Assembly: GCA_031376385.1 (NCBI GenBank)
Contig: JANMDQ010000018.1
Location: 12,673-76,672 of the forward strand
Length of the DNA: 64,000 nt
DNA from: Sphingomonadales bacterium
GTDB taxonomy: Bacteria > Pseudomonadota > Alphaproteobacteria > Sphingomonadales > Sphingomonadaceae
Direction: 5' to 3'
Of the stretch, positions 7,732 to 51,749 are shown piece by piece. The notes beneath the pieces are model-generated. The model saw nothing but the letters and a program-made list of their open reading frames with translations. It was not told where the DNA came from and searched no databases. Each line of letters opens with the position of its first letter. The stretch's first letter is position 1. The position numbers were made by a program, and so were the translations under genes.

Positions 7732-8726
7732 GTTGTGAACGCGGCACTTTACTCCCCTCCCCTTCAGGGGAGGGGTTGGGGGTGGGGAGTGCCCAACACT
7801 CTGCGCTCGACGTGACACTCCCCACCCCAACCCCTCCCCTGAAAGGGAGGGGCTTAGTGCGAGGCAAACTCACCCCCAACGCCCCGCTCGCCCCACTGGT
7901 CTGGTTCAAATCGGGCGGGCGCGCAGAGTGGTTGTTCGAACCCAAAGACACAGCTGACTTGCAACATTTCTTGCGCACTCTTGATCCTGCCGTGCCTGTC
8001 ATGGCGTTGGGCCTGGGTTCAAACTTGATCGTCCGCGATGGCGGCGTGCCCGGCGTTGTCGTGCGGCTGGGCAAAGCTTTTGGGGCGGTTGCGCCGCAGG
8101 ACGATTTCGTCCTGTCTTGCGGGGGCGGGGCGTCTGGCATTCTTGTGTCATCGACTGCGCGCGACGCAGGCATTGCGGGCCTTGAATTTCTGCGATCCAT
8201 CCCTGGCACGGTCGGGGGCTTCGTGCGCATGAACGGCGGCGCTTACGGGCGTGAGACGAAGGACATCCTTCTCGAGTGCGATCTTGTTCTCCGGTCGGGG
8301 GACATAGTGACGCTGTCGGCCGATGACCTTGGTTACACTTATCGCCATTCTGAACTGCCCGCAGGAGCGATTGTTGTTGCGGCCCGGTTTCAAGGCCAGG
8401 CTGGCGTTTCTGCCGCCATTCAGGAGGAAATGGACCGCATTTCTGCCGGCCGTGAAGCGTCCCAACCGCTCAGATCCAAAACCGGCGGATCGACCTTCAA
8501 GAATCCTGAAGGTCACAAGGCCTGGGAACTGGTTGACGCGGCGGGATGTCGAGGCCTGCAAATCGGTGGTGCGCAGGTTTCAGAAAAGCACACCAATTTC
8601 CTGATCAACACAGGCGACGCGACCAGTGCGGATATCGAGGCGCTGGGCGATGAAATCCGCGCACGCGTGCTGGCCGCGTCCGGGGTGGAATTGCAGTGGG
8701 AAATTCAACGGGTGGGGGTGAAATGA
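7728..8726 (+). CDS. murB: UDP-GlcNAc-enolpyruvate reductase MurB, with a palindrome-encoded N-terminal insert
   Basis: [37 protein letters not shown]; ATGA overlap with murC; alternative in-frame GTG start at 7857. Confidence 0.95.
7754..7852. repeat. REP-like nested inverted repeat (family A) inside the murB 5' region
   Basis: Arms 7754-7791 and 7816-7852 are reverse complements with one mismatch and one indel; each arm carries its own CCCCTCCC-N-GGGAGGGG hairpin. Confidence 0.9.
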
Positions 8727-20234: not shown

Positions 20235-20350
20235 ACTGTCACCCTGAACTGGTTTCACGGTCCATGCCTCGATTTTCATGCAAGACTGGATCTATCAATT
20301 TCGGCAGCGAAATTGAGGCATGGATGCTGAAACCAGTTCAGCATGACAGT
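20235..20350. repeat. REP-like inverted repeat (family C)
   Basis: actgtcaccctgaactggtttcacggtccatgcctc ... gaggcatggatgctgaaaccagttcagcatgacagt; arms carry internal hairpins. Confidence 0.88.
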
Positions 20351-43137: not shown

Positions 43138-43151
43138 GGAAGTCTTTGACC

Positions 43152-43236
43152 AAAGTGCTCCGGGCTAGACCCGGAGCCCAAGGGTCACATACTCTTCCGC
43201 GCCCCACTGGACTCCGGGTCAAGCCCGGAGCACTTT
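43152..43236. repeat. REP-like inverted repeat (family E) between convergent genes
   Basis: aaagtgctccgggctagacccggag ... ctccgggtcaagcccggagcacttt; nested hairpins. Confidence 0.88.
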
Positions 43237-43261
43237 TGTGTTAGTGAAGCCGTAGTCGCTG

Positions 43262-48200: not shown

Positions 48201-48653
48201 TCAAACGAACGTCTGGGAAATCCATTCGCAGATGAGGGCAGGCTTGTCTTCGCCTTCGATTTCAATGCTGACTTCCTGCGTTTGCTGGATTTGACCCGGG
48301 CGCTTTTCTTCAAACGCGGCGAGTTTGAAATGCGCGCGAACGCGCTTGCCGGATTTGACGGGCGAAAGGAAACGGAGCTTGTCCGATCCGTAATTCACAC
48401 CCATCTTGATATTATCCAGATGAGGCAATTTCGCCATCGCCGAAAGCATAGGGATGAGCGAGAGCGTCAAGAACCCGTGCGCAATCGTCTGGCCGAAGGG
48501 CGTGTGCTTGGCCTTTTCAATGTCGATGTGAATGAACTGATGATCGCCCGTGGCGTCGGCGAATTTGTTGATCATGTCCTGATCAACCAGTACCCAATCG
48601 GATGTGCCGATATTCTCGCCGATCAAGGCCTTCATCTCATCTATCGTTGCCAT
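48201..48653 (-). CDS. MaoC-family dehydratase
   Basis: FADATGDHQFIH, AHGFLTLS, NYG.DK.RF..PV. Confidence 0.93.
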   Translation of the reverse strand: MATIDEMKALIGENIGTSDWVLVDQDMINKFADATGDHQFIHIDIEKAKHTPFGQTIAHGFLTLSLIPMLSAMAKLPHLDNIKMGVNYGSDKLRFLSPVKSGKRVRAHFKLAAFEEKRPGQIQQTQEVSIEIEGEDKPALICEWISQTFV

Positions 48654-48758
48654 TTTCTGTCTCCGTCAAAAAGGGTGCAAAGGCCGCGCAACTTTATTAC
48701 AAAGGCAACCATCGCGATATCACCCCCTAGGCCCCAAAAAGACTGTGAGTCAAAGATC

Positions 48759-51749
48759 ATGGATTCCCCAACGTCATTGATGCGCAAACTTCACCGGATG
48801 GCAGAGCCTGATGTGCTTGGCCCGTTGTTAGCAGGCGCTGAATCGCCCCCGGAGGAGCGCACACGGATCGTATCGCAGGCTAAGGGCCTGCTGATTGATT
48901 TGCGGGCCGCGCAATCATCAGGCTGGGTCAATCAGTTCCTGACTGAGTATCGCCTAAACACCGCTGAAGGAGTCGCGCTGCTGAGCTTAGCCGAAGCTTT
49001 TCTGCGCGTTCCTGATGCCGAAACCGCAGATGCCCTCATCGCGGACAAGCTGGGCGATGCCAATTGGCGCGCCCATTCGGGCAAGTCTCATTCCAATCTG
49101 GTGAATTCTGCGACATGGGGCCTGGTGATTGGTCGCGCCTTAGTGAACGACAATGGCGAAGCGGGCGTCCTGCGCCGACTGGTGTCACGTGCGGGGGAGC
49201 CCTTCGTGCGACAGGCTGTCGGCGCGGCAATGAAAATGATGGGCGAAATTTTCGTCATGGGCCGCACAATATCTGAAGCCAGCGACAGGATGCGCAAGCC
49301 TGAGAACCGGGGCTTTACGGCAAGTTTTGACATGTTGGGTGAAGCCGCGCGGACTTATGCTGATGGCGAACGCTATTTCAAATCCTATCTCGATGCCATT
49401 GAGGCGGTGGGGCGCGAACCCGGCACGGGTCATTCGATATCGGTCAAACTTTCAGCACTTCACCCCCGCTATGAGGTTGCCCACTGGGCCTCCTGTGTTC
49501 CGATGCTGTCTGACTTGCTGGAGGGGCTGTGCCTAGCTGCCGCAAAGGCCGGGATTGCTCTGACGGTTGACGCCGAAGAATCGGAGCGGCTTGAGATGAG
49601 CCTGGATATCATCAGCCGGACCGCGCGGCTGCCATCGCTCAAAGGGTGGGATGGCCTCGGCATGGCCGTGCAGGCCTATTCTAAACGCGCGGTTGCTGTC
49701 ATCGCCTGGGCTGACAGCCTGGGCGCGGAGACGGGGCGGCGGATCGCAGCACGGCTGGTGAAGGGGGCCTATTGGGATAGTGAGATCAAGCGCACGCAGG
49801 AATGGGGCCTGTCCGACTATCCCCTCTTCACGCGCAAAGCCGCGACGGATGTGTCGTGGCTGGCCTGTGCCAAGGACATGCTGCGCGCCAAGAATATCCA
49901 CCCGGCCTTTGCGACGCACAACGCCCTGTCCGTCGCAACGGTGCTGGAATGGGCGGGCGACGCGCGGGATTTTGAATTCCAGCGCTTGCACGGCATGGGC
50001 GAGGGACTTTATGAGACGCTGGTACGCGAACAGGGCTACCAATGCCGCATCTACGCACCCGTCGGCGGCCACCGCGATCTTCTGGCCTATCTGGTGCGGC
50101 GCTTGCTGGAAAATGGCGCGAATTCAAGCTTTGTGCATCAGCTGGCCGATGCAGACGTGAATGATGATGTGCTGCTGGCCGACCCTGTGGCGAAGGTGAT
50201 GGCTGTTGGCGGTAGGCGGCATTCGAGCATACCATTGCCCATTGATTTGTTTCCGGGGCGAAAAAACAGTTCGGGCCTGGATTTGCAGGATAACGATATT
50301 CTTGCTGATACTGCGCGGCTCCTCTGCGCCTCTGCGCCTCTGCGCGAACAAAAGAAAATTGGGCTCGCGCAGAGGCGCAGAGGCGCAGAAAACAATGTGG
50401 CCGCTGCAGTGGCAAGCTTTCCAAATTGGACGGCGTCATCGATCGACAGCCGATGCGTCAAAGTTGAACGCCTTGCTGATCTTCTTGAAACTCACCGCAT
50501 CGAACTCATGTCGATCCTCGTTCATGAGGCGAAGAAGACCATCCCCGATGCGTTGGGCGAAGTGCGGGAAGCTGTTGATTTTTGCCGCTATTATGCGGCG
50601 CAGGCGCGAACCGGATTACAACCCATCGAGCTTCCCGGCCCCACGGGAGAGCGCAATGTTCTGCGCTACGGCGGTCGCGGGGTGTGGGTTTGCATTGCAC
50701 CTTGGAATTTCCCGCTGGCGATATTCCTCGGTCAGGTCGCAGCGGCTTTGGTGACTGGTAACACAGTGATTGCCAAGCCCGCACCGCAAACACCGTTGAT
50801 TGCAGAACGGGCCGTTGCGCTGGCGCATGAGTCAGGCATTGCAGCAGATGTGCTTGTACTCGCGCTCGGCGGTCCAGAAGTTGGGGCCGCACTGGTCGCT
50901 GATCCTCGTATCGCTGGCGTGGCCTTCACAGGGTCAACCGCAACGGCCAAACGGATTGCGCGAGCGCTGGTGGAGGAGGATTCGCGGCCACTTATTCCGT
51001 TCATTGCAGAAACCGGCGGTATCAATGCGATGATCGTCGATTCCACCGCTCTGCCCGAACAAGTGGTGCAGGACGTAGTGACATCGGCGTTCCGGTCTGC
51101 GGGGCAACGCTGCTCCGCTTTACGGCTGCTATTGCTGCAAGAGGATGTGGCGGAACGGACGCTGGAAATGCTGGCAGGCGCGATGGACGCGCTGGTAGTC
51201 GGTCATCCGGCTGATCCGGCGACAGATGTCGGACCCGTGATTGATCAGGCGGCTTATGATCTGTTGATGGGATATAGGGAGAGCAAGCGCGCTGATTGGG
51301 TGCATACCCTTGCCTCGGGTGATACGAACTGCGCTTTCTTTGTGCCTCCCACCATCATCCGTCTCTCCTCCATCGAAGATCTAAGCACCGAATGGTTCGG
51401 CCCCATCCTCCACGTCGCCACGTGGAAAGCAGGGGCGCTTGCGGAGACGGTGCAGAGGATCAATGCCAAAGGCTACGGCCTCACCATGGGCCTGCACAGC
51501 CGCATCGCGCGGACGGCGGACGAAGTTGAGGCGCTGGCGCGGGTCGGCAATCTTTATGTGAATCGGTCGATGATTGGGGCCATTGTGGGTTCTCAACCGT
51601 TCGGCGGAGAGGGGTTGTCAGGCACGGGGCCAAAGGCAGGCGGGCCAAACTATCTTCACCGCTTTTGTGTGGAGCGAGTGACGAGCACAGATACCACAAG
51701 TGCAGGCGGTAATGCGTCGTTACTCAGTCTGGATGAGGTTGGGGCTTAG
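48759..51749 (+). CDS. putA: Bifunctional proline dehydrogenase / P5C dehydrogenase PutA (no RHH domain)
   Basis: SFDMLGE, RLVKGAYWD, QRLHGMGE, YLVRRLLENGANSSF, PWNFP, AFTGST, ETGG, SAGQRCSA, FGGEGLSGTG; ORF-track start 48282 is an antisense overlap of MaoC. Confidence 0.96.
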   Translation: MDSPTSLMRKLHRMAEPDVLGPLLAGAESPPEERTRIVSQAKGLLIDLRAAQSSGWVNQFLTEYRLNTAEGVALLSLAEAFLRVPDAETADALIADKLGDANWRAHSGKSHSNLVNSATWGLVIGRALVNDNGEAGVLRRLVSRAGEPFVRQAVGAAMKMMGEIFVMGRTISEASDRMRKPENRGFTASFDMLGEAARTYADGERYFKSYLDAIEAVGREPGTGHSISVKLSALHPRYEVAHWASCVPMLSDLLEGLCLAAAKAGIALTVDAEESERLEMSLDIISRTARLPSLKGWDGLGMAVQAYSKRAVAVIAWADSLGAETGRRIAARLVKGAYWDSEIKRTQEWGLSDYPLFTRKAATDVSWLACAKDMLRAKNIHPAFATHNALSVATVLEWAGDARDFEFQRLHGMGEGLYETLVREQGYQCRIYAPVGGHRDLLAYLVRRLLENGANSSFVHQLADADVNDDVLLADPVAKVMAVGGRRHSSIPLPIDLFPGRKNSSGLDLQDNDILADTARLLCASAPLREQKKIGLAQRRRGAENNVAAAVASFPNWTASSIDSRCVKVERLADLLETHRIELMSILVHEAKKTIPDALGEVREAVDFCRYYAAQARTGLQPIELPGPTGERNVLRYGGRGVWVCIAPWNFPLAIFLGQVAAALVTGNTVIAKPAPQTPLIAERAVALAHESGIAADVLVLALGGPEVGAALVADPRIAGVAFTGSTATAKRIARALVEEDSRPLIPFIAETGGINAMIVDSTALPEQVVQDVVTSAFRSAGQRCSALRLLLLQEDVAERTLEMLAGAMDALVVGHPADPATDVGPVIDQAAYDLLMGYRESKRADWVHTLASGDTNCAFFVPPTIIRLSSIEDLSTEWFGPILHVATWKAGALAETVQRINAKGYGLTMGLHSRIARTADEVEALARVGNLYVNRSMIGAIVGSQPFGGEGLSGTGPKAGGPNYLHRFCVERVTSTDTTSAGGNASLLSLDEVGA
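50323..50389. repeat. Perfect 25-bp inverted repeat (family D) inside putA
   Basis: (TCTGCGCC)2TCTGCGCGA-N17-TCGCGCAGA(GGCGCAGA)2. Confidence 0.92.

Follow-up and report, generated by a model that had tools for sequence, protein, structure and literature searches.

Palindromic repeats which are read in-frame within genes are textbook knowledge for Rickettsia but little documented elsewhere. The Rickettsia palindromic elements (RPEs) are dispersed repeats of ~100-150 nt which lie in-frame in housekeeping genes (PMC10969869). Here we describe a palindrome situated within putA, the gene of the bifunctional proline dehydrogenase (PRODH) / P5C dehydrogenase (P5CDH), in a bacterium of the genus Chakrabartia (Sphingomonadaceae). 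Judged by analogy, the RPE is the closest known phenomenon. In our view, the palindrome is probably an RPE-like in-frame foldback repeat which is tolerated in the variable connector between both PutA domains and kept uniform by processes acting across the entire repeat family. Positions given without contig label refer to the window, i.e. the whole stretch of 64,000 nt that was analysed (C24:12673-76672 of the genome). The genome of the window, designated G000, is a freshwater-sediment metagenome-assembled genome (MAG) of 3.12 Mb on 36 contigs with a GC content of 56.7%.

The two arms of the inverted repeat (50323-50347 and 50365-50389) comprise 25 nt each, are 100% complementary and enclose a spacer of 17 nt. 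A perfect 25-bp inverted repeat built from 8-bp units around a 17-nt A-rich loop had been the starting point of the original prediction, and it is borne out by the arm coordinates as well as by the tandem 8-nt units. In 64 kb, a perfect inverted repeat with arms of this length is not attributable to chance. The element is made up of three CTCTGCGC units, GAAC, an A-rich loop ending with TTGGGCTC and three GCGCAGAG-type units, the inner arm ends being GAAC/GTTC. Compared to the 67 nt initially assigned to it (50323-50389), its limits were refined to 50322-50390, so that it begins at a codon boundary and encompasses exactly 23 codons (Table 1). Within the 67-nt stretch, six-frame reading reveals not a single stop codon in any frame, just as had been claimed. 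Since three 8-nt units equal eight codons, each arm yields one stop-free octapeptide in any phase: the octapeptide is the same in all three frames apart from cyclic permutation (LCASAPLR, SAPLRLCA or LRLCASAR on one strand, AQRRRGAE on the other). Only the total length of a copy must be divisible by three for the frame to be kept, which holds for the 69 nt in putA and for the 87 nt of a second copy in ribD (see below). The phasing of the units thus provides a structural rule which renders the peptide both frame-independent and free of stops.

The RNA fold predicted for the element has an energy of -58.7 kcal/mol (z = -10.1), and none of 200 shuffled sequences is as stable, which agrees with the earlier proposal that a strong mRNA hairpin may form in the middle of the gene. 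A known RNA family can be rejected, as the search of the element against Rfam returned merely sub-threshold matches to generic miRNA-precursor hairpins. Likewise rejected were an internal terminator and an internal promoter, neither of which was found; a terminator-like tail is missing. Contigs from two metagenome runs span the element with zero differences and orthologues in independent assemblies carry it, too, so that it does not represent an assembly artefact. The runs containing the element sequence are DNA metagenomes only.

The palindrome belongs to a family of repeats which is dispersed across the genome. With up to two mismatches allowed, the arm sequence CTCYGCGCCTCYGCGCGAA gives 26 matches at ~14 loci of G000, while a degenerate arm pattern which also covers a subfamily with CTTCGCGN units gives 29 exact matches compared to 0 for the reversed control. 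We estimate the family at about 14-20 loci, most of which are intergenic. For the putA copy, the 19-nt arm end CTCTGCGCCTCTGCGCGAA recurs in identical form at C14:53505, C15:431698, C15:431728, C15:442851 and C23:1686; likewise, several loci of the related genome G018 match its own putA arm end over all 19 nt. All copies feature approximately three units per arm, GAAC/GTTC at one arm end and an adjoining A/T-rich stretch with TTGG. They adopt one of two arrangements: at eight loci the GAAC ends point towards the loop, resulting in a hairpin of the putA type, while in the other arrangement they point outward and enclose 20-430 nt of other sequence. Most copies lie within 5-30 nt of gene ends, e.g. 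in the metG-tatD and sufC-sufD intervals or upstream of the gene for a TonB-dependent receptor. That the element should recur elsewhere, as the original prediction of a mobile repeat had it, is clearly the case, there being many other loci, coding (ribD) and for the most part intergenic, with related genomes included.

An origin in place from a GC-rich connector sequence encoding Ala, Pro and Arg, or else a sequencing or assembly artefact, would imply that the palindrome is no member of any repeat family. In favour of an origin in place one might adduce that the total connector length is near that of the PutA from B. japonicum and that short connectors of relatives contain scattered GCGC, CTCC and GGAG fragments. 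Yet more than 13 other loci, versus 0 reversed-pattern controls, have identical arms and loops resembling that of putA, and the element is unchanged in contigs of both runs and present in independently assembled orthologues. These findings already contradict this explanation, to which we attribute virtually no probability.

Apart from this family, G000 harbours several unrelated ones resembling repetitive extragenic palindromic (REP) sequences; in total, perfect inverted repeats with arm lengths of ≥20 nt number at least 41. At C28:493069-493137, a CGAAG-type hairpin is located directly before the hydrophobic core of a signal peptide (…FTRRRKGAKRTAWAGLLLAVLPLHALAQE), where its right arm may encode the positively charged N-region or be part of the 5' untranslated region. 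It was not counted as a third in-frame copy, its most likely position being at the start of the signal peptide or immediately upstream.

The host gene of the palindrome is intact. The putA open frame (48282-51749 on the forward strand) extends over 1155 codons uninterrupted by stops, and translation probably starts with the ATG at 48759 (MDSPTS...), where the starts of the orthologues align. Pfam recognises Pro_dh (1.6e-91; aa 335-620, covering positions 3-278 of 278), Aldedh (3.1e-100; aa 701-1129, positions 30-456 of 461) and Pro_dh-DNA_bdg (1.7e-38) within the frame, both enzyme domains hence residing in one intact polypeptide. In the alignment with PutA from B. japonicum (3HAZ; E = 1e-130) the region 49599-50900, i.e. 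434 aa including the connector, matches residues 290-724 without a break. The element region aligns with approximately residues 528-556 of 3HAZ, which lead from the end of the PRODH-side linker to the first P5CDH helix; the overall length is nearly equal. PutA of the sister species G020 is 91% identical to that of G000. The location just past an RKNSSGLDL motif at the junction of the proline dehydrogenase and aldehyde dehydrogenase halves, as given in the original prediction, is correct, as the peptide LLCASAPLREQKKIGLAQRRRGAENN follows upon GRKNSSGLDLQD between the Pfam domains. An AlphaFold2 model calculated from 44 orthologues (mean pLDDT 71, pTM 0.74) comprises a helix at 512-524, a turn, a short helix at 529-538 and a further helix at 543-559. 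While the flanking helices reach pLDDT values of 85 and 87-93, those of the element residues (approximately 522-544) range from 51 to 68. The 23 residues encoded by the element are accordingly modelled as a low-confidence helix-turn segment joining two confident helices. Of the surface linker proposed at the outset, the model is in line with the linker as such.

To place the element in its family context, the connector was measured from G(L/I)DLQD to F..W in 81 PutAs of Sphingomonadaceae, among which its length varies from 99 to 246 nt. A short form of 99-111 nt with the motif 'ILA..A..IA..PLP' is shared by other genera and the majority of Chakrabartia, C. godavariana among them, and hence likely represents the ancestral state. 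Orthologues devoid of the palindrome do not share the element peptide; their connector is the shorter, unrelated 'A..IA..PLP' one. At the same putA site, palindromes consisting of 8-nt units are found in eight orthologues (G000, G020, G006, G018, G011, G013, L049 and L064), whose connectors measure 126 nt, or 123 nt in the case of L064. In the alignment of these eight carriers, pairing holds for 84.9% of the cells as compared to 34-57% for slid partner columns; of the 29 pairs, 12 are altered on both sides. G006 and G018 use CTTCGCGN as unit, G000 and G020 use CTCTGCGC. In G007, G024 and G021 the putA element is decayed.

Palindromes in this position are by no means limited to the family described here. 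Strong inverted repeats occur in 29 of the 81 connectors, with none among connectors of ≤120 nt, and fall into at least six unrelated families, which identifies the connector as a repeated landing place. One of them, AGCCCCTCCCCTTCAGGGGAGGGGTTGGGG, is read in-frame in approximately 12 PutAs of Allosphingosinicella and Sphingomonas and is the family to which the repeat at 7754-7852 of the window belongs. A search of the literature yielded nothing on palindromes in PutA connectors or on REPs of Sphingomonads within genes. As to further repeats of this kind, the one at 7754-7852 is a nested palindrome, CCCCTCCCCTTCAGGGGAGGGGTTGGGGGTGGG, whose 33-nt arms are 91% complementary, and two further unrelated inverted repeats with arms of 32 and 41 nt are situated at 43149-43239 and 20235-20350 of the window. 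Of the latter, the GTGCTCCGGGC...CCCGGAGC type exists in at least eight perfect copies in G000 and has a relative in the PutA connectors of L053, L062 and L086. L016 (G005:C261), a divergent PutA of 56-59% identity, contains a further, different perfect palindrome of ~27 nt, CTCGTCGCTCCGGCGAAGGCCGGGGCC...GGCCCCGGCCTTCGCCGGGGCGACGAG, at the junction, the predicted fold of its connector amounting to -118 kcal/mol.

Compared to the ancestral short connector, the net gain is +24 nt. As the element measures ~69 nt, it follows that about 45 nt of native connector were replaced. An alignment with close relatives had been suggested as a way of finding the insertion ends and a possible target duplication; when these were aligned, neither exact ends nor a duplication could be discerned for the putA copy. 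Alternatively, a single ancient insertion in the ancestor of Chakrabartia could have been inherited strictly vertically, its symmetry being maintained by correction within the element (arm-to-arm repair, unit slippage) without any input from other copies or a nuclease. Such a history would account for the identical position and the connector length of 126 nt common to seven of the eight carriers (123 nt in the eighth), for decayed versions where the family was lost (G007 with 0 arms, G024 with 1 arm) as well as for the subfamily and loop which G000 and G020 have in common. It explains the complementarity of the arms but not the 19/19 identity of arm ends to loci of the same genome, as seen in G000 and in G018, and it leaves the wholesale difference between CTCTGCGC and CTTCGCGN lineages unexplained. 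Furthermore, in the nested clade as well as in G022 the short connector is like that of outgroup genera and so looks ancestral, not like the product of a deletion. We thus deem strictly vertical descent improbable.

A conspicuous discrepancy between nucleotide and peptide conservation is observed upon comparison of G000 with G020. At four-fold sites, their putA genes are 52% identical (36-44% in comparison with the other carriers). Within the 69-nt element, 61 of 69 bases are identical by hand count, including all nine four-fold sites (0.52^9 ~0.003), and merely two of 23 third positions differ. The element peptide is identical in 17 of 23 residues as opposed to 91% identity protein-wide. One compensated change converts a C-G into a T-A pair, both sides being non-synonymous. 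The loop is conserved to the same degree as the stem (11 of 13 nt). With the loop equalling the stem in this respect and the peptide drifting, it is the nucleotides of the element in its entirety which are constrained, and not the peptide or the pairing alone; what is preserved is DNA or RNA.

The intergenic copies between metG and tatD and between sufC and sufD behave similarly. They are present in G000, G020, G006 and G018 as well as in G005, G022 or G010, and are far better conserved than their flanks. The remaining species have empty sites, where the stop codon adjoins or overlaps the start codon. At each of the two loci, the arms are of the CAGAG/CGGAG type in G000 and of the CGAAG type in G020, while the loops are similar. 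The fact that all units of a copy change together points to replacement by, or conversion from, other copies instead of point mutation.

These observations also bear on the question of whether the hairpin might be adaptive for putA, i.e. a co-opted repeat copy under selection, be it as a translation pause allowing PRODH to fold first, in mRNA decay or processing, or as a DNA site of a host protein. The conservation of the nucleotides far above neutral with a drifting peptide, the compensated non-synonymous pair change between G000 and G020 along with the 12 of 29 pairs changed doubly across eight species, the retention of its subfamily by the G020 putA copy where other G020 copies are mostly of another type, and the location exactly at the PRODH/P5CDH junction would all fit such a role. 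Selection for pairing alone, however, does not predict a loop conserved like the stem, and intergenic copies show equally above-neutral conservation which their flanks lack. Moreover, many congeners, the type species among them, possess an intact putA without a hairpin at this place, other genera have unrelated palindromes at the same spot, and the arms are identical to those of dispersed copies. Considering also that the element has neither a terminator-like tail nor an Rfam family, we regard an adaptive function as rather unlikely.

A second in-frame copy is found in the RibD gene (C15:486068-487141; deaminase and RibD_C domains), which holds an outward-facing copy read as DSPRGAEAQRISATHPRLRASARTD. 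This insert of 87 nt, equalling 29 codons, is missing in 25 of 25 congeners, whose RibD sequences align as two pieces 0-15 nt apart. As the sister species G020 (86% identity) is one of them, the family entered this gene in frame after G000 and G020 had split. ATTGG is present on either side of the insert, and the flanks are also diverged. The empty site of G020 reads ATTGGGTTC, which resembles an arm terminus. Unoccupied sites at ribD (L129), metG-tatD (e.g. L182-L190) and sufC-sufD (e.g. L211, L212) contain GTTC or GAAC, as in ATTGGGTTC, TAATGTTC and CGTGAAC. This is the tetranucleotide with which each arm ends; its occurrence at empty sites may reflect a target preference, microhomology or chance.

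Copies of the family can also carry a gene. In the cassette at C14:53070-53527, the left arm GGGTTCGCGCACAGGCGCAGAGGCGCAGAG and its inverted partner, which have the same arm sequence as the family, enclose a GxxExxY gene. The 145-codon open frame at C14:53044-53481 (reverse strand) contains this PDDEXK_3 gene (C14:53119-53466), with matches to PF13366 (2e-35) and to TIGR04256 GxxExxY (2e-34). Most of the 24 PDDEXK_3 loci in the genus lie between inverted arrays of 8-nt units, with a unit variant peculiar to each locus. Among 200 other Alphaproteobacteria, 16 of 22 testable PDDEXK_3 loci possess inverted arms of phased units, their scores being far above those of shuffled flanks. In addition, the arm count tracks the presence of PDDEXK_3 in 26 genomes, some of which are incomplete MAGs (Mann-Whitney p = 4e-4, Spearman rho = 0.72). 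PDDEXK_3/TIGR04256 is the only gene found between such arms, and no recognised transposase is among them. In the literature we encountered GxxExxY/PDDEXK_3 mentioned only in passing, with its function listed as unknown and without reference to repeats, and no publication on phased-arm cassettes was found.

In the C14 cassette, the GxxExxY frame continues beyond the domain into the arm (RPLCASAPVREP), its last residues, RPLCASAPVREPSLRSQHV, being encoded by the repeat. The PDDEXK_3 match of G020 (G020:C236:25981-26317) is split in two frames and possibly constitutes a pseudogene; G020 has 5 arm matches in comparison to 29 in G000. A REP-associated tyrosine transposase (RAYT) was rejected as partner gene, since the sole RAYT-like gene of G000 (PF01797, Y1_Tnp; C18:44473-44802) is flanked by AGTTCCGGGGACACTAT and not by CTCYGCGC arms. 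Around this Y1 gene (C18:43900-45500), tandem AGTTCCGGGGACACTAT lies upstream and inverted copies lie downstream; the gene seems to sit within, and to disrupt, a gene for an IS110-like transposase (MTIYAGLDVSDKTTHVCVV...).

Table 1. Features of the putA locus in window coordinates.
Feature	Position	Strand	Basis
putA coding sequence (bifunctional proline dehydrogenase / P5C dehydrogenase)	48759..51749	+	Pfam; end-to-end alignment with B. japonicum PutA 3HAZ
GRKNSSGLDLQD motif, end of PRODH-side linker, left anchor of the variable connector	50256..50291	+	N503, S504, G506 and D508 invariant in 44 PutAs
Whole foldback element, 69 nt, 23 codons, translated LCASAPLREQKKIGLAQRRRGAE	50322..50390	+	same architecture at other G000 loci
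Left arm, three phased 8-nt units (CTCTGCGC x3), 8 codons LCASAPLR	50322..50345	+	
Inner ends and loop, GAAC-AAAAGAAAATTGG-GCTC; family pattern GAAC, A-rich, TTGG(G)TTC	50346..50366	+	similar loops at C15:442851, C26:53327 and C21:28342 (reverse strand)
Right arm, GCGCAGAG x2 and GCGCAGAA, read AQRRRGAE	50367..50390	+	
NNVAAAVASFPNW, first confident helix of the P5CDH (Aldedh) domain, right anchor	50391..50429	+	Aldedh match from aa 701; model helix 543-559

According to the explanation we favour, the putA palindrome is a gene-less hairpin copy of a dispersed foldback family in which an arm is built from three 8-nt units in phase (CTCYGCGC or CTTCGCGN) and terminates with GAACC; gene-carrying copies of this family enclose the gene of a GxxExxY/PDDEXK_3 nuclease of ~125 aa. 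It occupies a short, poorly constrained PRODH-P5CDH connector which has been colonised repeatedly by palindromic repeats in Sphingomonadaceae. Presumably, the ribosome reads through the element, in which case the peptide would become part of PutA, which would merely tolerate it without needing it. The near-perfect palindrome is probably upheld by processes at the level of the family, with other copies serving as source for copying or gene conversion, or with the element inserting anew, all of which the family nuclease may trigger. The original prediction of a REP-like mobile repeat which has been tolerated in, or has replaced, a surface linker is thus supported with regard to the copy of a repeat family, its in-frame state and the replaced connector; the partner gene is no RAYT, and the mobility is a matter of deduction.

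Several observations weigh against this explanation. With a net change of only +24 nt the putA copy did not arise by simple insertion, and no target duplication, direct repeats or clean insertion ends are seen there in comparison with relatives; a simple insertion accompanied by target duplication is hence unsupported. Although copies in G020 are mostly of the CGAAG type, its putA copy stays CAGAG, for which slow vertical decay or selection is a better fit than routine overwriting. Among nine genomes, the stability of the putA hairpin displays no clear trend with family size, as exemplified by G013 (0 arms, fold of -65 kcal/mol) and G006 (60 arms, -56 kcal/mol). On the PutA tree calculated with the connector excluded, the carriers do not form one clade but appear in four places (AU p = 1.6e-69, or 0.004 with G022). 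A single origin of the putA copy was therefore rejected, and at least three gains, losses or transfers, in whatever combination, are needed. In a tree of RibD, TatD and SufD, which is rough, with weak deep support and, there being no outgroup, of open polarity, one of two genome groups contains all carriers along with almost every PDDEXK_3 gene and the intergenic sites which are occupied. Finally, transposition, cleavage and translation, and with these the mechanism of mobility and the role of the nuclease, are all things we infer from sequence.

A more far-reaching possibility is that GxxExxY cassettes and gene-less hairpins make up a selfish system which overwrites copies in a homing-like manner, by cleavage of an arm and subsequent repair from another copy, the 8-nt phasing being an adaptation for survival inside genes. 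We consider this doubtful, albeit less so than an adaptive hairpin or strictly vertical descent. If true, it would explain the switching of unit subfamilies between sister species at orthologous sites, the perfect palindrome in an essential-type enzyme gene despite saturated silent sites and the role of connectors such as the PutA PRODH/P5CDH junction as permanent safe harbours for palindromic DNA.

Irrespective of the mechanism, one and the same enzyme site being empty, occupied, decayed or held by other families across 81 genomes lets the absorption of selfish DNA be measured. The case offers an orthologous series across a genus, conservation gauged by means of four-fold sites, subfamily switching and a connector colonised by six unrelated families. 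For PutA enzymology it means that the PRODH-P5CDH connector can accommodate arbitrary sequence over a length of 33 to 82 residues. In addition, the genus-level evidence links the repeats to the large GxxExxY/PDDEXK_3 family of unknown function and thereby suggests a testable role for it.

In comparison with known systems, the elements resemble RPEs in being a dispersed multicopy palindrome which lies in-frame in unrelated housekeeping genes, leaves these intact and adds a peptide, with open frames and further copies in intergenic positions. They differ in length (69 nt in putA versus about 100-150 nt), in the arms of three phased 8-nt units with their frame-independent octapeptide, in their host, a free-living freshwater member of the Sphingomonadaceae (Chakrabartia) instead of an obligate intracellular bacterium, and in the tie to a small PD-(D/E)XK nuclease gene, no enzyme being known for RPEs. 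On account of length, lineage and design we set them apart from RPEs, a distinction drawn without direct comparison to RPE consensus sequences. With the REP/REPIN-RAYT system (Bertels & Rainey 2011, PMC3116915) they share short, mostly extragenic inverted doublets which form hairpins, subfamilies within a genome and a single-copy protein gene on either side of which the same repeats lie inverted. The flanked gene, however, is GxxExxY/PDDEXK_3 and not a Y1 (IS200-like) transposase, and the arms are arrays of units, not REPs which are palindromic themselves.

Terminal inverted repeats, a non-coding short form, occasional in-frame fusion and a larger, gene-carrying relative are reminiscent of miniature inverted-repeat transposable elements of the Correia/ERIC type (PMC10969869). 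In contrast to these, no recognised transposase is associated, and two arm arrangements with GAAC facing inward or outward exist. As for a target duplication, ATTGG on both sides of the ribD insert may represent one, the flanks being diverged as well, and nothing comparable is seen at putA. The GIY-YIG single-stranded DNA nucleases Ssn, framed by the NTS repeats which they cut (PMC11893778), provide a parallel for a small stand-alone nuclease gene between copies of a dispersed multicopy repeat. Yet the fold is PD-(D/E)XK and not GIY-YIG, NTS repeats have not been reported as in-frame gene inserts, and the present cassette is known as a sequence. With GxxExxY/PDDEXK_3 phased-arm cassettes the putA family has in common the three 8-nt units per arm, the flanking of a PF13366 gene by the same arms and an abundance which co-varies with that gene.

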